The notes: generated from the sequence alone by a model not told the origin. Counted from the first letter of the stretch, positions 1,293-33,609 are shown. The stretch is 64,000 nucleotides of DNA from Minisyncoccota bacterium (GCA_035403785.1 DAONFW010000003.1:14009-78008), one strand, 5' to 3'. Numbers and translations: made by a program.

Positions 1293-2252
1293 TTACAAGA
1301 AATATCTGCTCCAGCGCTTCTCCCCAGCCTTCTTAAGGACACCATCATTCACCATAGCAATGAGTTCTCTTTGGAGTGTCTTTTCGCCACATTTGGCTAG
1401 TGACCCGTAAGCCGCCTTCTTGATGTCTGTTATTGTAGCTTCTTTCTTGTCTTTTATTATCTTAACAATAATATCTCTTCTTTCTTTCTTTAAGTTATCA
1501 AACCCCGAACGAAAGCTTTTGGCTTCATACGGGGCATGATTTACTCTATTGGACATGCTACTTTTTTCAAAAGTTTTTATATTTTTTATATCTTTGATGT
1601 CTTTTATTGCCTTCATCAAGGTGCTACCTTTTTGGACACCAATTCTCATACTATTAGCATGAGAGGTTGATATGTTTTTTTGAGCTACTTGTTGTCTGTT
1701 AGAAATTTCTTTTTTGTTTTCTGTTGAGAAACTATTTTCTTTACTACTTCCCGCTTGTGAACCGGCAGCTAGTCTAGCTTCTGAATTTAATTCTGTTTCT
1801 TCTGTTTGGTTTGTGTTATATAAATTTTGATTCAAAAAGTCTGCGATCAAAATAGGATTATTATTTTTAACTAAAGAATCTCTTAAATTTATAAATTCTT
1901 TTTTTAGGATAGAATAATTCATTTCGGAAATCATTCGAATGGTTGAAGCTAGCTCCAAAAAGGACACGACTTCTGAAATTCTGCTTATATTTTTACTTAT
2001 TAAATTTGAGTCTGTCCTATATGAGACAACGTGCATGTCTGATAGAATATCTGTCCCAGCAGACCTTAATTTGTTACGTAATGGCTCGTCTTTGTCCATT
2101 ATGTCTGTGACCATATAAAGGGCAGTAATGAGTTTGTTTGTTTTAGAATTTAAGCTGATAAAAATGTTCTCCTTGTCATAAGAAACAATAGAAGAGGAGG
2201 TGTCTTTTATAATGTTTTCCGAACTGTTGTTATCACCTATCATAATGTCCAT
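1293..2252 (-). CDS. Hypothetical protein with a C-terminal winged-helix/HTH-like domain (possible DNA-binding regulator)
   Basis: The ORF-track ORF 1293..2303 begins with TTG inside the GC-hairpin element. The first in-frame ATG is at 2252 (MDIMIG...). The C-terminus ...ITDIKKAAYGSLAKCGEKTLQRELIAMVNDGVLKKAGEKRWSRY resembles a wHTH. No other domain recognised. Confidence 0.5.
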   Translation of the reverse strand: MDIMIGDNNSSENIIKDTSSSIVSYDKENIFISLNSKTNKLITALYMVTDIMDKDEPLRNKLRSAGTDILSDMHVVSYRTDSNLISKNISRISEVVSFLELASTIRMISEMNYSILKKEFINLRDSLVKNNNPILIADFLNQNLYNTNQTEETELNSEARLAAGSQAGSSKENSFSTENKKEISNRQQVAQKNISTSHANSMRIGVQKGSTLMKAIKDIKDIKNIKTFEKSSMSNRVNHAPYEAKSFRSGFDNLKKERRDIIVKIIKDKKEATITDIKKAAYGSLAKCGEKTLQRELIAMVNDGVLKKAGEKRWSRYFL

Positions 2253-2288
2253 TATTATATCTATCGGACGAGAGAAGTCAAATATTTT

Positions 2289-2403
2289 CCCCTCCTTGAT
2301 CAAGGAGGGGCTAGGGGTGGTAATTCTAAAAAATCACCACCTTGCTCCGACAAAAGTCGGAGCACTCCTCCTCAACAAGGAGGAGAAAAAAGAAAATTTT
2401 ATT
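2289..2403 (-). repeat. Four-hairpin GC-rich structured element, copy A (SD/anti-SD-like arms); on the minus strand it lies 36 nt 5' of the gene start at 2252
   Basis: CCCCTCCTTGATCAAGGAGGGG, GGTGGTAATTCTAAAAAATCACCACC, GCTCCGACAAAAGTCGGAGC, CTCCTCCTCAACAAGGAGGAG then an A/T tail. A second copy is at 10046-10149. Confidence 0.6.
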
Positions 2404-2463
2404 TAAAGTTTTTACTAATTTTTGCAAATTTCAAAAAAGGGTAAAAAATGATAAAATTAGCAA

Positions 2464-4689
2464 ATGGCAAAAACCGAAAAAAAATTAGATAAAAAAAATA
2501 CTTCTCAAAAGAAAAACGTTAAACTTAAAACAGAAACTAAACACAAAATTCTCGCAGTTATATTTTTTGTTTTAGCAATTATTTTCTCTATGTCTGCTTT
2601 CTCGGGAGCTGGACCTGCGGGAGAATTTATTTATAAAATTTTTTATTTCTTATTTGGTTTTGGTTACGCTCTTTTGCCAATTTTATTTTTACTTTTGGGA
2701 TCATCTTTTATCAAATCAGAAAGACCAAATATCGGTTGGCCTCGCACGATAAGCGCACTGTTATTTTTGCTTTCAGGACTCGGAATGATCACAATTGCGG
2801 CAGGAGAATCTGGAAAAACTTATGGTGGATTTTTTGGAAAAGTTTTAGCAAATCCATTAGTCGCTTTATTCGATGTTTATGCAAGTATCTTTTTCCTTGG
2901 GGCTCTTTTGATTATCTCTCTTTTGGTAATGTTTGATACAAAACCTGAATTTGCATTCTTGAGTAAAATTTGGAATTGGTTAAAAGGAAAAAAAGTTGCG
3001 AGAGAAAATATTGCAGAAGAAGAGGTTGAAGAAACAGAAGAAGAAATTCCAGAAGAAACGATTGCTGAAGAAGTTATTGAAGAAGAAAAAGAAACAGCTG
3101 GAAGTAAACTCAAAAAAGCTTTGGGTGTTGGCAAGAAAGAAAAAAAAGACGAGCCAGAAGAAGAAATTCAAATAAAAAAGAGAAAATTTGTCTCAAATTC
3201 TGCTTATGTTCCACCACCACTTTCTTTGCTCGAAGAAGATAAAGGCAAACCAAATACGGGAGACGTGAAAGCTAACGCAAATATAATAAAACGCACACTT
3301 GCAAACTTCGGTATTGAAGTAGAAATGGATGAAATAACTGTAGGACCAACTGTTACACGTTACGCTTTGAAACCAGCTGAAGGGGTAAAACTTTCTAGAA
3401 TAGTTGGCTTGCAAAATGACCTGGCTCTAGCGCTAGCCGCTCACCCGATTAGAATAGAAGCTCCAATCCCTGGAAAATCTTTAGTCGGTATCGAAATACC
3501 TAACAAATCTAAATCTATTGTCGGTTTGGCTACATTGCTTTCTGAAGATAAATTCCAGCACTCACAGAAGCCGCTCACCGTGGCGCTCGGAAGAAGTATC
3601 TCTGGCCGAGGATCTTTTGGAAACTTAGCAAAAATGCCACACTGTCTAGTCGCTGGAACTACTGGATCTGGAAAATCTGTAACTATTCACGCTATTATTA
3701 CTTCCCTACTATATAGAAACGGTCCAGAAGATTTAAAATTTATCTTGATAGACCCAAAAAGAGTTGAATTAACGCTTTATAACAAAATTCCACACTTGCT
3801 TACTCCAGTTATTACTGATGCAAAGAAGGCTATTCTTGCTTTGAAATGGGCTGCTAAAGAAATGGATAGACGTTATGACATATTAGAAGCAGAATCTGTT
3901 CGTGATATCGAGTCTTATCACAATAATGTATTGGCTAAAAGTGAAAAGAAAGTGAAAGTAACCGAAAATGGCCAAGAAATCGAAGAACAAGCAGACAAAA
4001 TGCCTTATATTGTAATAATAATCGACGAATTGGCTGATATCATGACTGCTTACCCAAGAGAGCTGGAAGCAGCTATCGTAAGATTAGCCCAAATGTCCCG
4101 TGCCGTTGGAATTCATCTTATTCTTTCTACTCAAAGACCAGAAGTGAACGTTATTACTGGTTTGATTAAGGCAAACGTTCCAGCTCGTGTAGCATTGAAA
4201 GTGTCTTCACAGATAGATTCTAGAACTATTCTTGATGCCGGAGGGGCTGAAAAGCTTTTGGGAGCTGGAGATATGCTTTATTCTTCAGGTGAAGCTCAGC
4301 CAGAACGTTTGCAATCAGCCTTTATTTCAGAACCAGAAGTGAAAAAAGTAGTGAAATATTTAGTTGATAATTACAAAGACGAACTTATGGAAGAAATAAA
4401 CTTAACTTCTGGCTCTATCTCTGCTGATAAAAGTATTTTTGAAAGCACTTTAGACGATAGTGGCGATAATGACGACGAAATGTACGAAGAAGCTAGAGCT
4501 TGCATAATAGAAGCAGGCAAAGCCTCTACTTCTTATTTGCAAAGAAAATTAAAATTGGGCTACGCTCGCGCAGCTAGATTGATGGATATGTTGGAAGAAA
4601 GAGGCGTTATCGGCCCAGCAGATGGAGCAAAACCAAGAGAAGTACTAGAAAAAATTCAACACGACGAAAACGGAAATAATGTGATGTAA
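2464..4689 (+). CDS. ftsK: DNA translocase FtsK/SpoIIIE
   Basis: N-terminal TM helices; Walker A GTTGSGKSV; C-terminal gamma wHTH ...YLQRKLKLGYARAARLMDMLEERGVI. Confidence 0.92.
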   Translation: MAKTEKKLDKKNTSQKKNVKLKTETKHKILAVIFFVLAIIFSMSAFSGAGPAGEFIYKIFYFLFGFGYALLPILFLLLGSSFIKSERPNIGWPRTISALLFLLSGLGMITIAAGESGKTYGGFFGKVLANPLVALFDVYASIFFLGALLIISLLVMFDTKPEFAFLSKIWNWLKGKKVARENIAEEEVEETEEEIPEETIAEEVIEEEKETAGSKLKKALGVGKKEKKDEPEEEIQIKKRKFVSNSAYVPPPLSLLEEDKGKPNTGDVKANANIIKRTLANFGIEVEMDEITVGPTVTRYALKPAEGVKLSRIVGLQNDLALALAAHPIRIEAPIPGKSLVGIEIPNKSKSIVGLATLLSEDKFQHSQKPLTVALGRSISGRGSFGNLAKMPHCLVAGTTGSGKSVTIHAIITSLLYRNGPEDLKFILIDPKRVELTLYNKIPHLLTPVITDAKKAILALKWAAKEMDRRYDILEAESVRDIESYHNNVLAKSEKKVKVTENGQEIEEQADKMPYIVIIIDELADIMTAYPRELEAAIVRLAQMSRAVGIHLILSTQRPEVNVITGLIKANVPARVALKVSSQIDSRTILDAGGAEKLLGAGDMLYSSGEAQPERLQSAFISEPEVKKVVKYLVDNYKDELMEEINLTSGSISADKSIFESTLDDSGDNDDEMYEEARACIIEAGKASTSYLQRKLKLGYARAARLMDMLEERGVIGPADGAKPREVLEKIQHDENGNNVM

Positions 4690-7200: not shown

Positions 7201-7252
7201 AATTTTAATTAACTTTTATTTTGAATTTAGTTTAATTAGACTTTAGATTAGA

Positions 7253-7705
7253 CTAAAATGGAATATCTTCTGGATTTATATCTTCTTCTGGATATTCTAT
7301 TGTGTCTACTTCTTCTGCGCTCGACTGTGCTGAAGATTGGCTTGCACTAGCTGTTTGATTAAAACCACTTGCGCCACCCTTTGGACCAAACTGTACTCTA
7401 TCTGCAATAATTTCAGTTCTATATTTCTTTTCACCTGTGCTCTTGTCATCCCAACTTCTTGTCTGCATTCTTCCCTCAACTAACATTGAGTTCCCTTTTT
7501 TCATATACTGAGCAACAGTTTCTGCTTGGCGACCAAAAACTACAACATTGTGATAATCAGCAGATTCCTGTCTTGTGCCGTTTTTGTCTTTCCAAACTCT
7601 ATTTGTTGCTAATGAAAAAGAACAAACTTTGATACCAGATGGCAAAGAGCGAAGTTCTGGATCACGAGTTAGATTTCCTATAATAATTGCTTTGTTTAGA
7701 TACAT
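7253..7705 (-). CDS. ssb: Single-stranded DNA-binding protein
   Basis: OB-fold N-terminus; acidic C-terminus ending DIPF; classic rpsF-ssb-rpsR arrangement. Confidence 0.9.
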   Translation of the reverse strand: MYLNKAIIIGNLTRDPELRSLPSGIKVCSFSLATNRVWKDKNGTRQESADYHNVVVFGRQAETVAQYMKKGNSMLVEGRMQTRSWDDKSTGEKKYRTEIIADRVQFGPKGGASGFNQTASASQSSAQSSAEEVDTIEYPEEDINPEDIPF

Positions 7706-9239: not shown

Positions 9240-9665
9240 TTACTTATTTTTATTTACCATCTTTTCTAGCAACTTAATATCTTCCTGATCTTTTTCTCGA
9301 TTTAAAGCTTTCTTGAATTTTAAAAGTTCTTCTGGGCTCATAAAAGGTGTGCCTTTTATAACAACAGCAGAATTAATCGCTTGTTCAGAAGTTGTTTCAT
9401 ATTTTTCCCAATTTAATCTTGGAATAATAGTAAAAATATCTTTCTGTAAAAAGATCTGATCGTGAAGTTCTTCTTGTTTCCATGTTTGATCTTTTTTCAA
9501 CTCTTCATACAAATCTTTTGAAACAGCAATATCAATGTCACTAGCTGGTCTTATTCCTAAAGCATCGAGCAAACCACTACCAACAATCACATACTTACCA
9601 AAAGGTAAATTTAGCTCTTTGGTTTTTTCAAAAATATTAAATTTTTTATTTTCAAATTTTTCCAT
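9240..9665 (-). CDS. Putative nucleotidyltransferase-fold protein (minimal NTase)
   Basis: G-S-G x10 SDIDIAV fits the Pol-beta-type NTase motif hG[GS]...[DE]h[DE]h; 141 aa. Confidence 0.5.
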   Translation of the reverse strand: MEKFENKKFNIFEKTKELNLPFGKYVIVGSGLLDALGIRPASDIDIAVSKDLYEELKKDQTWKQEELHDQIFLQKDIFTIIPRLNWEKYETTSEQAINSAVVIKGTPFMSPEELLKFKKALNREKDQEDIKLLEKMVNKNK

Positions 9666-9669
9666 AAAT

Positions 9670-10032
9670 TTATTTAATTAAATTCAATTCATTAGTAATC
9701 TTTAACAATACTCCATTCATATTAGAATTTATTTCTGCGTTTGTAAAACGCAGAACTTTTATATCTAAACCCTCAAAATAATTACTTCTGATTTTATCAT
9801 ATTCTACATTTTCTTTTACAAAATGCTGTGATCCATCTATCTCTACCACTAACTTTTTCTCAGGACAATAAAAATCTGTAATGTACCCACCGATACTATG
9901 CTGGCGACGAAATTTACAACCAAGTTTAGATTGTTTTATTTTATTCCAAAGTAAAATTTCTTGAGGGGTACTATTGTTTCTCAATTCTTTTCTTCTGTAA
10001 AATAATTTTTTTATATTATGAACAGTTTTCAT
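9670..10032 (-). CDS. DUF559 / Vsr-like endonuclease-domain protein
   Basis: The first ATG of the tracked ORF is at 10032 (MKTVHNI...). The body ...RRQHSIGGYITDFYCPEKKLVVEIDGSQHF... is typical of the DUF559 (very-short-patch-repair-like) endonuclease fold. Confidence 0.7.
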   Translation of the reverse strand: MKTVHNIKKLFYRRKELRNNSTPQEILLWNKIKQSKLGCKFRRQHSIGGYITDFYCPEKKLVVEIDGSQHFVKENVEYDKIRSNYFEGLDIKVLRFTNAEINSNMNGVLLKITNELNLIK

Positions 10033-10045
10033 TTGTATTTTAGCT

Positions 10046-10149
10046 CCCCTCCTTGATAAGGAGGGGGTTGGGGGGTGGTAATTCATAAATCACCACCTCG
10101 CCCTTCGGGCACTCCTCCTCCACAAGGAGGAGAGAAATTAATTTTATTT
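10046..10149 (-). repeat. Four-hairpin GC-rich structured element, copy B; on the minus strand it lies 13 nt 5' of the DUF559 gene and just 3' of the metG stop
   Basis: CCCCTCCTTGATAAGGAGGGGG, GGTGGTAATTCATAAATCACCACC, CGCCCTTCGGGC, CTCCTCCTCCACAAGGAGGAG then an A/T tail. Same order and spacing as copy A. Confidence 0.6.
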
Positions 10150-11592
10150 CCTCAAAAACAAAGGCGTCTCTGGTTTTTTATTTGATTTAATTAATTCTTG
10201 AATTTTTTTGGAAGTTTCGGGAAGAAGCACTTCTGTCAGCAAAGCTATTTCGTAAAGTTTCAAAATATTTTCTTTTATTAATTCTTTTCCTTTTTCTTCA
10301 TCTATTTTTATAACTTTAAACGGCTCAGTTTCTTGAATTCTTTTATCTAATTCTCCAATCTTATTCCAAACGAATTCTGCCGCTTTTTGAATTTCAAATT
10401 TTTCTAAATGTTCAAAAAATTCTTGAGATATTTTTATATCTTCAAAATTAATTTTTTCTGTCAGATATTTCTCAGACAAAGTTAAAATTCTCGAAGTTAA
10501 ATTTCCCAAACCATTCGCTAATCCAGAGTTATAAGCTTCTTTGAATCTCTCTACTGTGAACGGGCTATCTTCAAAACTTCCAACTTCACGCAATAAGAAA
10601 TATCTCAAAGCATCTGTGCCATATTCTTTCACAATTTCTGTTGGATCAACTACATTGCCCAAAGTCTTGGACATTTTCACGCCACCTTCGGCTGTGATAA
10701 AGCCGTTTATGACTATCTGCTTTGAATTCGGCACACCGGCAGCCATGAGCATCGCTTGCCACATTGCAGATTGAAAACGTAAATTATCTTTTCCACAATA
10801 CTGAACTGTCATGCCATTTTTCCAATATTTTTCAAAATCTCCAGATTCATCTGGCCAGCCAAGCGTAGAAATATAATTCACTAACGCATCGAACCAAACA
10901 TACATGACATGCTTCTCATCTCCCGGCACTGGAATTCCCCACGGCATTTTTTCTTTCAGTCTTGATATAGAAAAATCTTGCAAGCCACGATCAACGAAAG
11001 CTTTGATTTCATTAAATCTAAAATCTGGAATTACAAAACTAGGATTATTTTTATAAAAATCAGAAAGTTTTTTTGTAAATTCAGAATATTTGAAAAAATA
11101 ATTTTCTTCATCTATTATTTCTAACTTTCTGCCTGGATGATCTACGCACTCTCCTTCTTCATTTAATTCATGATCTTGTTTTTCACATTCACAACCAACG
11201 CAATATTTCGTCTGGTAATTTTTTTTGTAAATAAAACCATTCTGATCGCATCTTTTCCAAAATTCCTGCGCTGCTTCAATGTGCTTCTGATCAGTAGTTC
11301 TAGAAAAGTGTAAAATACTTTCATCCATGCCAAAAATTTTTACGGCTTCTTTAAATTTCTCAAAACTTTGATCAACAAATTCCTGTGGCGTTAAGTTTAA
11401 ACTTTTTGCTTTCTCAAAAATTTTCATTCCGTGCTCATCTGTGCCAGTATTAAAATAAACATCAAAACCCAAAAGCTTTTTGTAACGCGCAATTACATCT
11501 GCACGAATAAATTCGAGCGCATGCCCCATGTGAAGTTCTGCATTCACATACGGCAGAGTTGTAGTAATGTAAAAATTTTTATTATTGTTCAT
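10144..11592 (-). CDS. metG: Methionyl-tRNA synthetase (minimal form, no C-terminal tRNA-binding domain)
   Basis: HIGH-region HMGHALEF; KMSKTLGNVVDP; Cys-rich knuckle CVGCECE... Confidence 0.92.
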   Translation of the reverse strand: MNNNKNFYITTTLPYVNAELHMGHALEFIRADVIARYKKLLGFDVYFNTGTDEHGMKIFEKAKSLNLTPQEFVDQSFEKFKEAVKIFGMDESILHFSRTTDQKHIEAAQEFWKRCDQNGFIYKKNYQTKYCVGCECEKQDHELNEEGECVDHPGRKLEIIDEENYFFKYSEFTKKLSDFYKNNPSFVIPDFRFNEIKAFVDRGLQDFSISRLKEKMPWGIPVPGDEKHVMYVWFDALVNYISTLGWPDESGDFEKYWKNGMTVQYCGKDNLRFQSAMWQAMLMAAGVPNSKQIVINGFITAEGGVKMSKTLGNVVDPTEIVKEYGTDALRYFLLREVGSFEDSPFTVERFKEAYNSGLANGLGNLTSRILTLSEKYLTEKINFEDIKISQEFFEHLEKFEIQKAAEFVWNKIGELDKRIQETEPFKVIKIDEEKGKELIKENILKLYEIALLTEVLLPETSKKIQELIKSNKKPETPLFLRK

Positions 11593-12664: not shown

Positions 12665-12722
12665 ATAATATCACAAAAAAAATAAATAAAAAAAGCTTAG
12701 CCGATAAAATAACGGCTAAGCT
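12665..12722 (-). terminator. Rho-independent terminator downstream of the 12741..13088 gene
   Basis: AGCTTAGCCG-loop-CGGCTAAGCT, followed on the minus strand by TTTTTTTATTTATTTTTTTT. Confidence 0.6.
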
Positions 12723-28651: not shown

Positions 28652-29824
28652 TTATTTTCTCAAAACCTGATTAATTTTCTGTGCCATTTTAATCATATCT
28701 TTCTCTTTCTTACCTCGTGTAGTCTCAGCACAAGTGCCAAGTCTCATACCTGACGGATCCATTGGCTTTCTTGTATCTCCCGGTATTGTATTCATATTTA
28801 CTATTATTCCCGCTTTTTCTAGTTTTTCACTCGCTTCTTTTCCAGAAATTCCGGAGCCATTCATCCAAGTATCTACTAAAATTAAATGCGAATCCGTGCC
28901 ACCTGAAATTATATGCCAACCGAGATTTTTTAATTCTTCTGCCAGAACTCTCGCATTTTTTACAACTTGCTTTGCATATTTTTTAAAATCTGGACTCATC
29001 GCTTCTTTCAAAGCAACAGCAACTGCGCCAATATTATTCTCATGCGGTCCACCGAATAATCCTGGAATAATAGCTTTATCTATTTTTTTATCAAATTCTC
29101 TCGCATCTTTTTTTACAAAAATTATTGCCTGTCGTGGTCCACGCAAAGATTTGTGCGTAGTCGTCATCACAACATCTGCATATTCGAATGGTGACGGATA
29201 AACTCCACCGGCAACGAGCCCAGCAAAATGTGACATATCTACATGAAGTAGTGCGCCACATGCATCTGCAATTTCTCTAAATTTTTTGAAATCAACAAAT
29301 CTTGGATACGCAGTGAAACCACACACGATAATGTTTGGCTTTTCTTTTTTTGCCAACTCTTTCAAATTTTCATAATCAATCATTTCTGTCTGCGCATCTA
29401 CTTCATACTGTACTGACTGCCAAAATTTTCCCGTCATTGAAGCTGGGTGTCCGTGTGTTAAGTGCCCACCAGAAGATAATTTCATTCCCATGATTTTTCC
29501 TCCCATTGGTACAAGCGCAGTATAGACAGCAAAGTTTGCCGGACTGCCAGACAAAGCTTGCACATTGGCATGCCATTTATTTTTATCTAATTTAAAAAGT
29601 TTCAACGCACGTTCGATACACAAGTTTTCTACTTTATCTATAATTTTATTTCCACCGTAATATCTTCTGCCTGGATATCCTTCTGCATATTTGTTAGTCA
29701 ATTCTGAACCCAAAGCTTGTAAAACATCTTTTGATACATAGTTTTCAGAAGCAATTAAATTAATCACACTTTTTTGTCTTTTTGCCTCTTCTTTGATAAG
29801 TTTCTCTATTTGTTTATCTTGCAT
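28652..29824 (-). CDS. glyA: Serine hydroxymethyltransferase
   Basis: LIASENYVSKDVLQALGSELTNKYAEGYPGRRYYGG...; PLP-lysine region TTTHKSLRGPR. Confidence 0.9.
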   Translation of the reverse strand: MQDKQIEKLIKEEAKRQKSVINLIASENYVSKDVLQALGSELTNKYAEGYPGRRYYGGNKIIDKVENLCIERALKLFKLDKNKWHANVQALSGSPANFAVYTALVPMGGKIMGMKLSSGGHLTHGHPASMTGKFWQSVQYEVDAQTEMIDYENLKELAKKEKPNIIVCGFTAYPRFVDFKKFREIADACGALLHVDMSHFAGLVAGGVYPSPFEYADVVMTTTHKSLRGPRQAIIFVKKDAREFDKKIDKAIIPGLFGGPHENNIGAVAVALKEAMSPDFKKYAKQVVKNARVLAEELKNLGWHIISGGTDSHLILVDTWMNGSGISGKEASEKLEKAGIIVNMNTIPGDTRKPMDPSGMRLGTCAETTRGKKEKDMIKMAQKINQVLRK

Positions 29825-30735
29825 GGGTTAATTTTATCACATTTTATTTCTATTTGCCCAAGCTCGTCTGTTCTAAAAATCTGCACTTTAAAATTAGCCA
29901 AAAGATCCAGAATTTCCTGCTTTGGATGGCCAAATTTGTTTTTTAAACCAACTGAAATGACAGCATATTCTGGCTTAACGGCATTCAGAAAATCAACAGA
30001 CGTAGAAGTTTTCGAGCCATGATGGCCAACTTTCAAAATATCACTCTGCAGGCTTTCAGCTGTATTTTCAGATAAAATTATTTCTTCTGTTTTAACAGGC
30101 GCATCACCGGTAAACATAATAGAATTTTCTCCATAAACTATCCGCATCACAATAGAAGCCTCATTTGTTTCAAAATTAGAAACATCTCTGTCTGGAAATA
30201 AAATTTCGATATAAGCACCATCGCCGATATCTACCCGCGTGCCTCTTTTTGCCAAAAGATCTTTTATATTTTTTTCTTTAATTAAATTTTTAAAACTCTG
30301 AAAAGTCTGCGAATCTACTGAAACGCCAGATTCAAAAATCAATCCAACAGAATAATTTTCCAAAACATCTAAAATTCCACCGATATGATCTTGATCTGGG
30401 TGTGAAATAAAAACAAGATCAATACTTCTATCAGTTGGTGGCACGACACTAGCAAGCTGGCTAAGAATTTTATTCGGCGGACCAGTATCTACGAGCGCCT
30501 GAATTCCTGTCGGCGACTCAATGAGAAAAGCATCGCCCTGACCAACGTCTAGTACATAGACTATGAGATTTTTTTCTTCATTTTCCTTTTCATTTTTATC
30601 TAAATTTTTTTCTGCTACCGGATTTTTTATTTGCGCCGTAGGTCTATTGTTTTCTACCCAAAATAAAATAGCGACAAAAAACAAAAGTAAAATAAAAAAA
30701 GTAAAAAGCTTATTCTTTTTTGGTCTTTTTGCCAT
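29806..30735 (-). CDS. ComEC/Rec2-type metallo-beta-lactamase-fold nuclease domain protein (membrane-anchored), encoded separately from the ComEC channel
   Basis: N-terminal TM; VLDVGQGDAFLI, ISHPDQDHIGG, KVGHHGSKTS MBL motifs, typical of the ComEC C-terminal domain. Confidence 0.8.
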   Translation of the reverse strand: MAKRPKKNKLFTFFILLLFFVAILFWVENNRPTAQIKNPVAEKNLDKNEKENEEKNLIVYVLDVGQGDAFLIESPTGIQALVDTGPPNKILSQLASVVPPTDRSIDLVFISHPDQDHIGGILDVLENYSVGLIFESGVSVDSQTFQSFKNLIKEKNIKDLLAKRGTRVDIGDGAYIEILFPDRDVSNFETNEASIVMRIVYGENSIMFTGDAPVKTEEIILSENTAESLQSDILKVGHHGSKTSTSVDFLNAVKPEYAVISVGLKNKFGHPKQEILDLLANFKVQIFRTDELGQIEIKCDKINPCKINK

Positions 30736-30743
30736 GTTATAAT
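30735..30743 (+). promoter_or_regulatory. Extended -10 promoter (TGtTATAAT) placing sodA as a leaderless mRNA
   Basis: TGTTATAAT ends 6 nt before the sodA ATG at 30750; no SD. Confidence 0.4.
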
Positions 30744-30749
30744 GTTAAC

Positions 30750-31337
30750 ATGCAAACATTTACACCAAAAACTTTCAATTTACCAACAGAACTAAAAGGC
30801 ATATCAGCAAAAAACGTATCAGAACATTTGAAACTTTATGCTGGTTATGTGAATAATTCTAATTTAATTTTTGATAAACTTTCTGAATTAAAATCAGACC
30901 CAGAAAAAAATGGTTATATTCTTGCAGAATTACAACGCAGATTTGGTTTTGAATTCGACGGCATGCGCAATCATGAATATTATTTCGAATCTTTGTCAGA
31001 CGGCGCAAAAGAAATAAACAAAGCAAGTGAATTATATAAAAAAATAGAAAAAGATTGGGGAAATTTTGAAAATTTTCTAGCGCATTTCAAATTCGTCGCA
31101 ACAACGCGAGGCATAGGCTGGACTATTTTATATTTTGATAAAATTACAGATAAATTAATCATCACTTGGGTAGACGAGCATCATTTGGGACAACTTACCG
31201 GACTAACACCAATTCTGTGTCTTGATATGTGGGAACATGCTTATTATCTAGATTACACACCAGCAGAAAAGAAAAAATATATTGAAGCTTTTTTTGAAAA
31301 TTTAAATTGGGAGAAAGTAGAGAAAAATTTTAAATAA
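30750..31337 (+). CDS. sodA: Fe/Mn superoxide dismutase
   Basis: ...DMWEHAYYLDY... SOD signature. Start at ATG 30750 (the track ORF begins at an upstream TTG). Confidence 0.9.
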   Translation: MQTFTPKTFNLPTELKGISAKNVSEHLKLYAGYVNNSNLIFDKLSELKSDPEKNGYILAELQRRFGFEFDGMRNHEYYFESLSDGAKEINKASELYKKIEKDWGNFENFLAHFKFVATTRGIGWTILYFDKITDKLIITWVDEHHLGQLTGLTPILCLDMWEHAYYLDYTPAEKKKYIEAFFENLNWEKVEKNFK

Positions 31338-31378
31338 AAAAAGCCCCTGACAATGAAATGTCAGGGGACGAGCTATTT
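31333..31378. terminator. Terminator hairpin between sodA (+) and the 31389..32051 gene (-)
   Basis: AAAAAAGCCCCTGACA-ATGAAA-TGTCAGGGG. Confidence 0.6.
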
Positions 31379-31388
31379 TAGCTCAAAA

Positions 31389-32051
31389 TTATTTCTTACC
31401 TTTTCTACGTGGATCCGGCTTCTTCTTCGGCAATGGTTCAACCACGGATTCATTAGAGTGGATATGTAAATTTTCTACATTTCCGATGTAATAAATCGAG
31501 CCACTGCCTGCCGGAGGCACGGGCGGAACAGGAGGAACCGGTTCGGTCAGTGCGGGATCCGCAGTTGGTGCAGCTCCAGGAGTTGCCGGAGCAGAAGGTT
31601 TTGCGGCAGGTTTCGAATTTTTCTGGAAAATCATTTTGGCCAATTTTATCAATCCCCATATAGCAAGGGCTACCAGAAAGAGTCCCAGGAAAAAAAGTAG
31701 CAAGCCGAGAAAAAATTCCATAACCGGCCAAAGCCAATCCAGCCCACTGCTAGTCTTATGACTGGTGGCAGTAGAGGCACTTCCTGCTTTTTGACGAGTC
31801 GAATCTCCAGAGATCACCGTGTCTTTTTTAAGAACGAGAGGAACAACAACGTCTTTCATCCCGATCAGTTTGGGCTGAGAAAGAAGCTTTCCATCACACG
31901 AATACCTGGGAGCAGTAATCGGCTCCTGATAAATAATGGACGTATCCATCTGAACAGTGATTTTTATGTCCTTTGATTTATGCTCAACCTGATGGGAGCA
32001 ACTGGCAAACAAAATAGCCAGTACAGAAAAAATAAACAGAACTTTCTTCAT
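31389..32051 (-). CDS. Putative lipoprotein / membrane protein, Pro-rich, compositionally GC-rich relative to its neighbours
   Basis: Lipobox-like LFASCS after the signal peptide; central TM; PVPPVPPVPP tract; basic C-terminus. GC visibly elevated (runs of GGCGG/CCGG). Confidence 0.5.
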   Translation of the reverse strand: MKKVLFIFSVLAILFASCSHQVEHKSKDIKITVQMDTSIIYQEPITAPRYSCDGKLLSQPKLIGMKDVVVPLVLKKDTVISGDSTRQKAGSASTATSHKTSSGLDWLWPVMEFFLGLLLFFLGLFLVALAIWGLIKLAKMIFQKNSKPAAKPSAPATPGAAPTADPALTEPVPPVPPVPPAGSGSIYYIGNVENLHIHSNESVVEPLPKKKPDPRRKGKK

Positions 32052-32112
32052 TTTCTTAAATTTTAAGGTTTTCTGATATAAAGAATATCACACTTTATTG
32101 AAAAAGTCAAGC

Positions 32113-33609
32113 TTAAATCCCCTTAAAAAACAGCTTAATATCACGCCAAAATATCAAATAAATAAAATATAAATATATTAAAACTGTAATAATCAACGGA
32201 AAATTTTTGATAGTAAAAGCAGCAAACGGCAAACTGCCAAAAAATTTTATTATAAATAATTCATAATGCAGTAAGAAATAAGCAACATAACCAAACGGCG
32301 CTGCAAGCAAATACCAAATGAAACTAAAAATTCCAGAAAGAAAGCCGAGCAGCATAGTGAACGGAATAAAAGGCAAAACTAAAATATTAGTCGGCAAAGC
32401 TACGACTGATAAATTCCCCATTTTGTACAAAATAAATGGCAAGACGAAAATATACGCCGCTGTTGTGACTGTTACGATATCACGCAAACCAAAATTTTCT
32501 GTAATCCAATAAAAATATTTTTCTATTTTTGGCGTGAAATAAATCACAGCAACTGTCGCAATGAAAGAAAGCTGAAAAGAAATATCGTAATACAAGATCA
32601 TGGGATTTAAGAAAGTCATGACAACAGCAGCGAGAACCAAAGCGCGAGCGACGTCATAATTTCTACCAGTAGCGCGCGCAAAAAGCATAAGCACCGCCAT
32701 AATCCCCGCCCGCACGGCCGTCGCGCCAGCCCCAGACATCATAACGAACAAAATAATAGCTACAATTCCAAACCAAATTCCAATACCGTATGGCAGAAAT
32801 TTGAAAAGCTGCATGATCCACTCTGCAATAATAGTCACGTTGTAACCAGAAAGCGCAACGATGTGTATCGTGCCAGTGTTCACAAAACTATTTCGCAAAT
32901 TCTGATCAAAAGAAGATTTTTCACCCAGAATCAGTCCATTCATTAATAAATTTTCAGGATTTGGAATTAAAGCATTTATTTTTTTAACAAAACTGCTTTT
33001 TATTTTAAACAAATTAGCTTTTATAAAGCCAGCTTGATTATTTTCTAAAATCTTAATTTTTGGGTAATTAATTAGATATAAAATATTATCTTTTTTTAAA
33101 TAATTTATATAATCAAATATTTTTTCCTGATCTGTGGCAAAATTTTCTGCTTTTTCTAAAATTCCATAAAATTTTATTTCATCGCCATAATTAAAAGTCT
33201 GCTCAAAATCAGTAGTCAGTAAGATTTTTAAATCCTGCTTTTTATTTTCTGGATTTTGCACTGTTACCAATAATTTCTGATTATAATCTCGCATATCTAC
33301 GTCATCAGAAACAATACCAGTCAGTTCTATTTTCTGTTCTACTTTATTTTCCAAGAAAGTAGGAATATTTTTGCTATAAAAATAAAATCTAAATAAACCC
33401 AAAGAAATACACAAAATAAAAACAGAAAAAATTATTCCCCACTTATTCTGTCTAGATATAAAAATAAAATACAAAAATAAACAAAAAGCTAGAAATAATA
33501 AAAAATAAATTAAATTATAATTTGCAAAGAAAAAATCTTGCGCAGTAGAAATCAAAAATACTCCGATTATAAAACCGAAGCATATTGCATAAAAAATTCT
33601 GTCACGCAT
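32113..33609 (-). CDS. comEC: ComEC/Rec2 DNA-uptake channel protein (DUF4131 + competence domains only)
   Basis: 498-aa polytopic membrane protein with the ComEC N-terminal and competence-domain pattern; lacks the MBL domain, which is encoded at 29806..30735. Confidence 0.78.
   Translation of the reverse strand: MRDRIFYAICFGFIIGVFLISTAQDFFFANYNLIYFLLFLAFCLFLYFIFISRQNKWGIIFSVFILCISLGLFRFYFYSKNIPTFLENKVEQKIELTGIVSDDVDMRDYNQKLLVTVQNPENKKQDLKILLTTDFEQTFNYGDEIKFYGILEKAENFATDQEKIFDYINYLKKDNILYLINYPKIKILENNQAGFIKANLFKIKSSFVKKINALIPNPENLLMNGLILGEKSSFDQNLRNSFVNTGTIHIVALSGYNVTIIAEWIMQLFKFLPYGIGIWFGIVAIILFVMMSGAGATAVRAGIMAVLMLFARATGRNYDVARALVLAAVVMTFLNPMILYYDISFQLSFIATVAVIYFTPKIEKYFYWITENFGLRDIVTVTTAAYIFVLPFILYKMGNLSVVALPTNILVLPFIPFTMLLGFLSGIFSFIWYLLAAPFGYVAYFLLHYELFIIKFFGSLPFAAFTIKNFPLIITVLIYLYFIYLIFWRDIKLFFKGI

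Follow-up and report, generated by a model that had tools for sequence, protein, structure and literature searches.

What is the cluster of hairpins that separates ftsK from a divergently oriented gene in this Minisyncoccota genome? The stretch analysed here (64,000 nt; GCA_035403785.1 DAONFW010000003.1:14009-78008; hereafter the window) is AT-rich, with a GC content of 31-37%, and four adjacent GC-rich hairpins stand out at 2289-2385. An earlier note had described them as copy A of a four-hairpin element, homologous to a copy B further along the window, and had suggested that the element might either be part of a regulatory circuit or travel with selfish genes. We find copy A to be genuine and ordinary within its family, without evidence of a dedicated regulatory role, and infer that it has none. 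It is a solo member, without an open reading frame (ORF), of a family of ~95-nt palindromic elements in Paceibacteria of the candidate phyla radiation (CPR), and probably derives from a DUF559 nuclease cassette, in the manner of a miniature inverted-repeat transposable element (MITE). The element, its hairpins (H1 to H4) and the second copy are:

2284..2391, plus strand: copy A, a complete solo (ORF-less) four-hairpin element in the canonical H1-to-H4 orientation, identified by covariance model R1 and by the z-score of its fold.
2289-2310, plus strand: H1, CCCCTCCTTGATCAAGGAGGGG, a perfect 22-nt palindrome with a 9-bp stem (arms CCCCTCCTT-GATC-AAGGAGGGG).
2316-2341, plus strand: H2, GGTGGTAATT / AATCACCACC, 10 bp with one A.C mismatch and a 6-nt loop.
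2344-2363, plus strand: H3, GCTCCGAC-AAAA-GTCGGAGC, the variable hairpin, of which copy A has the long variant.
2365-2385, plus strand: H4, CTCCTCCT-CAACA-AGGAGGAG, the inverted counterpart of H1.
10040..10138, plus strand: copy B, a complete solo element (R1 score 105.8 bits) that takes up the whole spacer from the metG stop to the DUF559 start.

The proposed architecture holds: all four hairpins are present in copy A, and R1, a covariance model made from 47 copies, recognises it with 89.1 bits (E = 3e-18, span 2284-2391). In copy B the hairpins occupy 10046-10132, with H1, H2 and H4 as in copy A and a shorter H3. H1 is the perfect palindrome that had been reported, and the distance of 36 nt from copy A to ATG 2252 on its left was likewise correct. 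The right border, placed by the earlier note at 2403, had to be moved: the conserved unit stops near 2391, which excludes the A-rich tail and leaves about 73-78 nt, not ~60 nt, to the ftsK ATG (2464). As RNA, 2280-2410 on the plus strand folds at -56 kcal/mol compared to -28.4 +/- 3.8 for shuffled sequences (z = -7.2), and the minus strand yields z = -9.2. Within the window, the H1 and H4 patterns are confined to copies A and B (chance expectation 0.00-0.02), which also contribute five of the seven perfect GC-rich hairpins of at least 7 bp found in the 64 kb.

The end module of copy A consists of H1, a CTAG spacer and the 5' arm of H2. Because H1 is an inverted H4, the two ends of the element can also pair in an alternative fold; the outer ends of the element form terminal inverted repeats (TIRs; tTTnCTCCCCTCCTT ... 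AAGGAGGAGAGnAAa), and the inner GGTGGTrATT arms are also inverted. An H3 variant identical to that of copy A is found beside a DUF559 gene in locus L017, and the copy A junction GGAGGGG-CTA-GGGGTGGT is of a kind found at the ends of DUF559 cassettes (L100, L078). We rejected a coding role for copy A: the two ORFs that run across it, one from the TTG on the minus strand and the other at 2200..2406 on the plus strand, are mere artefacts of stems that cannot encode stop codons.

How far does this family extend? Scanning reference genomes, one per species, for the H2 pattern returned 56 loci, ~42 of which are real elements, in metagenome-assembled genomes (MAGs) labelled Candidatus Nomurabacteria, Paceibacterota, Minisyncoccia or Patescibacteria. 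The window, too, belongs to a Candidatus Paceibacterota MAG, as a database protein (P0001) with 100% identity shows. A fuzzy search combined with R1 yielded 48 full copies of ~95-100 nt from ~30 MAGs, two of them in the window, at a density of about 1 per 30 kb; weaker R1 matches represent sister families and half-elements broken at the H2 loop. A scan of viral contigs for the H4 pattern returned only unrelated coding matches in GC-rich phages, and literature searches turned up nothing on elements of this kind from CPR, Patescibacteria or Parcubacteria.

Most copies reside within genes. Long ORFs at ~16 sites in ~12 genes harbour 38 of the 48 copies (79%), and every one of these 38 lies on the sense strand, runs from H1 to H4, is free of stop codons and is followed by resumption of the host frame. 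The hosts include mnmA (two sites), metG, uvrB (with two copies within one gene in L030), ligA, the RNase R gene, homologs of p320 (the gene diverging from ftsK in the window), with the element in frame in the linker, and ftsK, whose acidic linker holds an in-frame element in six other genomes. Indels in the loops shift the sub-frame, giving peptides such as KNHHLALKG, KKSPPRPSG and LITTSPFGH (...GGGNSKNHHLALKGTPPQKGGE, ...KKSPPRPSGTPPQQGGE and ...LITTSPFGHSSSTRRR), so that the encoded peptides differ by site while nucleotide sequence and hairpins stay; at the host-insert junction of MnmA the predicted peptide reads ...HYARISPLLDKEGVGGGNSK... The in-gene copies appear to be translated, as Gly/Pro/Lys-rich peptides, and that all 38 keep the frame open argues for translation rather than splicing.

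What ties these elements to a nuclease? The candidate partner in the window is located next to copy B:

9670..10032, minus strand: DUF559 (Vsr-like PD-(D/E)xK) nuclease gene (Pfam PF04480, E = 2e-30), starting 13 nt from copy B.

In 412 kb of Paceibacteria sequence, three of three DUF559 genes abut an element. Among 80 DUF559 loci examined from metagenomes, R1 matches cluster at the borders of the nuclease genes, and the density of perfect GC-rich hairpins is as high as 6.4 per kb in the nearest 100 nt upstream and downstream versus ~0.2 per kb beyond 400 nt, an enrichment of about 30-fold; a GC hairpin lies within 200 nt in 62 of the 80 loci. The arms have a polarity, with a G-rich arm at -30..-11 from the ATG (p = 4e-6) and a C-rich one occupying 0..+20 downstream of the stop (p = 6e-4), the stop codon itself often falling inside the spacer ahead of the next palindrome. 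Aligning the flanks as inverted repeats beats the direct alignment in 40 loci versus 20 (p = 0.011), and in L087 TIRs of 87-97 nt surround the DUF559 gene. Of 65 loci, 16 have both arms with the polarity predicted, as compared to four with the opposite polarity and 0 of 36 displaced controls. These positional G/C profiles, alignments and polarity counts were used in place of the longest exact complement between the flanks, a measure that is confounded by palindromes and was dropped.

Four loci (L071, L124, L114, L016) display the order H4'-H3'-[GGTGGT arm]-DUF559-[ACCACC arm]-H1', with the ORF in the H2 loop. When the ORF is cut out in silico, what is left is the four-hairpin element again, with 88% (L071) and 80% (L124) identity to the solo consensus read antisense. 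In longer elements that share their ends with the solo copies (L071, L124, L016), the sole ORF is DUF559, without known transposase activity. The earlier suggestion that the element travels with selfish genes thus pointed in the right direction, given that DUF559 genes are systematically bracketed by hairpin modules and, in L071 and L124, lie in the H2 loop. DUF559 is a large family related to Vsr. Vsr belongs to the VSR/DUF559/DUF2726 clade of PD-(D/E)xK nucleases, and so does a homing endonuclease of a group I intron (PMC3424549). A full-text literature search for DUF559 retrieved no paper linking it to palindromic repeats.

How might such an element work? It is composed of two inverted end modules, each a GC-rich palindrome plus a GGTGGTrATT arm, joined via the H2 loop, with the small H3 as an extra hairpin on one side. 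Full-length relatives carry the 120-aa DUF559 nuclease gene in the H2 loop, and the solo element would relate to this cassette as a MITE to its parent, or as an ORF-less intron to one with a homing-endonuclease gene. The nuclease might recognise the palindromic ends or their cruciform, and spread or maintenance could result from breaks being repaired from element-bearing templates (break-induced, homing-like gene conversion) or from another transposition route. Copies would survive only where they are harmless, that is, in spacers outside transcripts, as for copy A, or in frame and in sense within protein linkers. More tentatively, and as a possibility rather than an expectation, DUF559 proteins could supply the nuclease for palindrome-ended selfish elements that form a widespread and so far unrecognised class, with ORF-less miniatures in frame in CPR essential genes that are kept against AT-biased decay by nuclease-driven gene conversion (homing via natural transformation), unlike DDE/HUH and REP/RAYT systems.

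The window also contains ComEC-like ORFs, assigned by eye from sequence, whose presence would be consistent with a homing mechanism, as would a mosaic tract in L066 and L067 (described below). At 29806-33609, a metallo-beta-lactamase-like part (29806-30735) and a membrane part (32113-33609), both likewise called by eye, appear separated by a superoxide-dismutase-like ORF and a 220-aa membrane protein with a Pro/Ala-rich C-terminal region (31497-31596, GC 67%).

Does the element persist for its own sake or for that of its host? The main rival to descent from a nuclease cassette, unlikely in our view, is a host-functional module under purifying selection, either on DNA (as a cruciform, protein site or supercoil sink between divergent promoters) or on RNA, with DUF559 being secondary and parasitising or targeting that module. 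Conservation of the stems with compensatory changes would suit it, and is among the grounds for the cassette reading as well. In a model-guided alignment of the 47 copies, 95.4% of cells are paired and double-sided changes occur in 12 of 31 pairs, a level that none of 500 shuffles attained and that compares with 2-4 pairs in slid controls. The H1 helix is 98.3% paired with double-sided changes at six of nine pairs, all four modelled pairs of H3 covary, and H4 switches between CTCC..GGAG and CCCC..GGGG in 9 of 47 copies. Between species, same-site copies are 87% identical in the element versus 68% in the flanking coding sequence, where third codon positions are down to 50% and four-fold-type synonymous positions to 41%. 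With flanking synonymous sites saturated, neutral retention of the element is not credible; some force keeps many copies intact while others decay. Recent horizontal co-conversion at the shared sites is unsupported, as flank identity is flat, at about 0.70, across 0-210 nt from the element, without a gradient.

Pairs from the same site are somewhat more alike (84%) than those from different sites (78%). Further in favour of a host function, homogenisation of the copies within a genome is not seen, and derived traits are common to species by site (mnmA site 1 has H2 flipped, and the ftsK site uses a single sub-frame), which indicates old, vertically inherited insertions. The location of copy A could also be accommodated, as a cruciform would extrude more readily under the negative supercoiling between two divergent promoters. 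Against such a function stands the patchy presence of the element: relatives at 76% and 56% identity lack it at the copy A site, its motif occurs in no more than 4 of the 120 p320 homologs with the best scores, and overall density is low. Decayed and truncated copies exist, including half-elements, a remnant in metG of L005 and what looks like an eroded allele in L067. Intergenic copies, moreover, are oriented inconsistently relative to their neighbouring genes, and the asymmetry among wobble pairs outside H2 (G.T to A.C, 17:8; H2 is fixed by the search pattern) is weak, so it does not single out an RNA strand of action.

Two of these cases merit description. At mnmA site 1 the H2 arms are swapped (GGTGGTGAT...AATTACCACC) in three species (L038 231-318, L046 534-621 and L057 4352-4439), which may reflect hairpin inversion as expected from template switching in a palindrome. 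The metagenome contigs L066 (1-1400) and L067 (1175-2560), in turn, match at 100% outside a single ~350-nt mosaic tract, within which SNP density climbs toward the element and which ends ~10 nt past it; the L067 allele, without an intact element, looks like a copy eroded by C->T / G->A changes.

Next in plausibility, though improbable, is that copy A acts as a locus-specific cis-regulator, an operator or leader for ftsK and/or the winged-helix gene p320 (with DUF559 as the target at copy B). The features of the locus that bear on this idea are:

1293..2252, minus strand: p320, a conserved Paceibacteria protein (316/319 aa; ATG 2252 or 2243).
2254..2281, minus strand: p320 promoter-like site TTGACT-16-TATAAT (consensus scan, 11/12 matches), between copy A and the gene.
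2430..2457, plus strand: ftsK promoter-like site TTCAAA-16-TG-TAAAAT with an extended -10 (consensus scan); the -10 box ends 6 nt before ATG 2464.
2464..4689, plus strand: ftsK, whose copy in the window has no internal element.

Position alone would invite a regulatory reading, with copy A lying between divergent genes and 7 nt upstream of the p320 -35 box. An element orthologous to copy A occurs upstream of ftsK in L029, the G-rich arm adjoins the ribosome-binding region in DUF559 cassettes, and a weak plus-strand promoter-like site at 2230-2258 could put copy A into a long ftsK leader. What speaks against it is, first, that in related genomes ten or more housekeeping genes, unrelated to one another, hold the same element in frame, which makes unlikely the regulatory circuit that the earlier note had considered for p320 and the endonuclease-like gene. 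Second, we compared the ftsK/p320 spacer with that of five relatives (L061-L065; 94-56% amino acid identity), found via protein search and contig look-ups. All five keep TTGACT-N16-TATAAT followed directly by the ATGGACATTATG start, element or not, as well as the block TGATAAAAT 6 nt before the ftsK ATG. The segment between these blocks is variable: L061 (94% amino acid identity) and L064 carry a different nested-hairpin element that has the unusual CACCCCTAGCCCCTC junction in common with the window, and L062, L063 and L065 have AT-rich DNA only. Spacer content is thus replaced or absent in close relatives, with promoters and start codons unchanged, a polymorphism that also speaks for the cassette reading. 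In L024 the element has entered ftsK as well as p320, and a weak hairpin cluster separates the two genes; the locus is a permissive one.

Conserved blocks around a variable segment imply that copy A probably lies outside both neighbouring transcripts, which are predicted to be near-leaderless and whose conserved promoter-proximal starts would leave no room for it. The element does sit between a divergent gene pair, as had been noted; it does not occupy their promoters but the space between the two -35 boxes. Placement in a 5' untranslated region is accordingly not evident, and promoter prediction puts copy A outside every transcript, the outcome that the earlier note had named as refuting its reading. 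The TTG at 2303, given as the p320 start by the ORF track, does lie inside H1, and the doubt voiced about it was justified: we rejected it, as element-less relatives keep the same promoter and the same ATGGACATTATG start. Judged from these comparisons, p320 starts at ATG 2252 or 2243, the latter being where the database protein begins, and TTG 2303 is spurious.

That copy A is an independent small structured RNA gene, or belongs to a known RNA family, is very improbable: strong predicted folds on both strands and stem covariation would suit it, whereas no Rfam 15 family matches the window, be it by gathering scores or by permissive E-values (best hit 25.7 bits versus a gathering score of 80), consensus and terminator scans detected no promoter or terminator of its own (no intrinsic terminator in 2150-2520, where the plus strand has an A-run after H4), most copies are parts of ORFs and presumably translated, and full-length versions enclose a protein-coding gene.

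Several considerations also weigh against deriving copy A from a DUF559 cassette. Copies within a genome are 79% identical as compared to 78% between genomes, and there is consequently no sign of recent bursts or homogenisation; a recent burst or concerted evolution was rejected on these grounds. The strong conservation at orthologous sites would be explained no less well by a function in structure or for the host than by selfishness alone. No mobility event was observed, and no target-site duplication emerged from the flank logos of 47 copies or the outer flanks of 18 DUF559 cassettes, where very short or AT-only ones may escape. To our knowledge, DUF559 is not a known transposase. The Paceibacteria loci proper contribute only three DUF559 genes, and the 80 metagenome loci are taxonomically unplaced and comprise several different hairpin families. 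The direction of derivation may have been either way, with the ORF lost from a cassette or a nuclease gene invading a hairpin loop. Similarity among copies is inflated by their having been chosen for an exact 20-nt H2 match, all data stem from MAGs and metagenome contigs, and the promoters at the copy A locus are consensus predictions, the weak plus-strand one of which could transcribe the element toward ftsK. As for a transposase supplied from nearby, no IS200/IS605-like gene was seen beside any copy, the loci not having been scanned systematically for one.

What are the genes on either side of copy A? The conserved -10 boxes of ftsK and p320 end 2-6 nt before the ATGs (2254-2281, minus strand; 2430-2457, plus strand), a spacing that suggests leaderless or near-leaderless mRNAs in this Paceibacteria lineage. 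p320 has more than 1,200 homologs in Paceibacteria, and Pfam matched neither the whole protein nor its halves. The AlphaFold2 (AF2) model of homolog P0028 (me1d2a521ea0c), which carries an in-frame element, has three parts. An N-terminal four-helix bundle resembles Xcc0516, the 'S23 ribosomal protein family' and the diversity-generating retroelement (DGR) accessory protein Avd (target-normalised TM-score about 0.8); the middle is a low-confidence coil linker of ~100 residues that includes the element-encoded stretch; and the C-terminal domain (residues 238-316) combines helices with a beta-hairpin and gives weak winged-helix matches to Fur, BlaI and ArsR. The C-terminal winged helix assigned to p320 by the earlier note is therefore plausible from the model of a homolog, with Pfam lending it no support. 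Inserts in p320 were counted by motif, since the whole linker is hypervariable. In many homologs this linker (window ~1600-1800) is a patchwork of translated remnants from several hairpin-element families, for example SPHPNPLLVKERG, YPHPTSPLLKGRS and LFITTPPFRHPSGIRRG (remnant-bearing homologs are P0005, P0011, P0029, P0041, P0042, P0057, P0059, P0080, P0084, P0088, P0108, P0112 and P0117), and may be a graveyard or a source for hairpin-element inserts.

Copy B lies antisense to both its neighbours, metG and DUF559; it has an orthologue in L005, and the same arrangement is seen in L069. The metG gene itself contains a further element site, empty in the window:

10843..10851, minus strand: empty element site in metG (codons D-E-S of GWPDES|GDF).

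At this GWPD site L013 has a full in-frame element, and L005 (~7230-7300) has an insert of ~20 aa (KGKTPSASGISPLAGGENSESN) that is probably an internally deleted, decayed element copy. The region beyond copy B differs as well. In L005 (6150-7040, compared with window 9240-10032) tatD directly follows the metG-element spacer; in the window, the DUF559 gene and a 141-aa ORF with faint nucleotidyltransferase-like Pfam matches lie between copy B and tatD. The stretch AAAATACAAAT before the first ATG is identical in both, as if a two-gene cassette had been precisely inserted or lost.

Sister multi-hairpin families are found in L009 (5976-6065 and 7074-7163), L039 (243-339), L061 (2890-2950) and L064 (400-480); modules such as CCCCTCTCC..GGAGAGGGG, TCCCCCTGACAAGGGGGA and GACCTCACCCC/GGGGTGAGGTC are common to them and the copy A family, and L009 and L021 have six or more weak R1 matches per 8 kb each. 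Two other perfect GC-rich hairpins in the window, at 12694-12722 and 31344-31367 (AGCTTAGCCG..CGGCTAAGCT and CCCCTGACA..TGTCAGGGG), belong to neither copy; the second resembles the TGACA-loop hairpins of the sister families.

Which known repeats does this family resemble? Rickettsia palindromic elements (RPEs) populate a reduced, AT-rich genome as dispersed palindromic repeats of ~100-150 bp, lying in spacers as well as, in frame, in conserved housekeeping genes, and are seen as selfish DNA from which proteins also gain peptide segments; RPE-7 in pheT is an old insertion retained in orthologs (PMC10969869, PMC1779305). Compared by description, the likeness lies in the many dispersed palindromic copies, 38 of 48 in frame in ORFs (copy A itself being intergenic). 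The differences are the host phylum, which is Patescibacteria (Candidatus Paceibacterota) and not Rickettsiales; the coding content, each RPE family being described with a conserved peptide, whereas the copy A family uses three sub-frames and conserves only nucleotides and hairpins; and the link of the copy A family to a DUF559 nuclease gene. We know of no gene linked to RPEs.

MITEs offer an anatomical parallel, as short, non-coding elements whose inverted ends are common to a longer ORF-bearing element (the L071 and L124 flanks match 80-88%), and solo copies of the copy A family outnumber ORF-bearing ones. Unlike MITEs, no target-site duplication is seen around copies or DUF559 cassettes, the ends are themselves palindromes, and the enclosed ORF is a 120-aa PD-(D/E)xK nuclease rather than a DDE, HUH or serine transposase. 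REPtrons reportedly consist of a nuclease gene flanked by inverted palindromic repeats, with many solo repeats elsewhere, a plan that the DUF559 gene with its inverted flanking palindromes and dispersed solo copies recalls. Repetitive extragenic palindromes (REPs) measure 20-40 nt and are extragenic by definition, a host function has been proposed for REPs and bacterial interspersed mosaic elements (BIMEs), and the REP-associated tyrosine transposase (RAYT) is a Y1 HUH enzyme. The copy A family differs from REPs and BIMEs in that 79% of sampled copies are intragenic, and from REP/RAYT systems in that the flanked gene is the Vsr-like PF04480 DUF559 and not a Y1 (HUH) transposase.

Homing-endonuclease genes lodge in hairpin loops of group I introns, and I-Bth0305I is a Vsr-like homing endonuclease. 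Here, too, a nuclease ORF lies in the loop of a structured element, ORF-less and ORF-bearing versions coexist, and the L066/L067 mosaic recombination tract ends at the element, as in homing. In contrast to introns, the copy A family matches no intron or ribozyme family in Rfam, and its in-gene copies keep the frame open, being presumably translated and not spliced. The family is unusual in uniting RPE-like behaviour and MITE-like anatomy with a tie to a Vsr-like nuclease gene that recalls REP/RAYT systems or intron-loop homing-endonuclease genes, and we found no description of it in the literature.

What follows for the biology of these bacteria? CPR proteins are noted for unexplained insertions. 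For genome annotation, elements of this kind yield false N-terminal extensions and false ORFs (TTG 2303 and 2200..2406 are cases in point) and apparent 'novel domains' in CPR proteins. They also pose a puzzle, as a presumably translated insert is conserved at the level of nucleotides and hairpins and not of the peptide, and more so (87%) than the essential genes around it (68%). If true, our reading would provide a clear second case, outside Rickettsiales, of palindromic repeats residing in frame in essential genes. Unlike RPEs, however, the copy A family has a candidate partner gene, which opens to direct testing the old question of how repeats of this sort spread or endure, and which, again if true, would give the large DUF559/Vsr-like family a biological setting.

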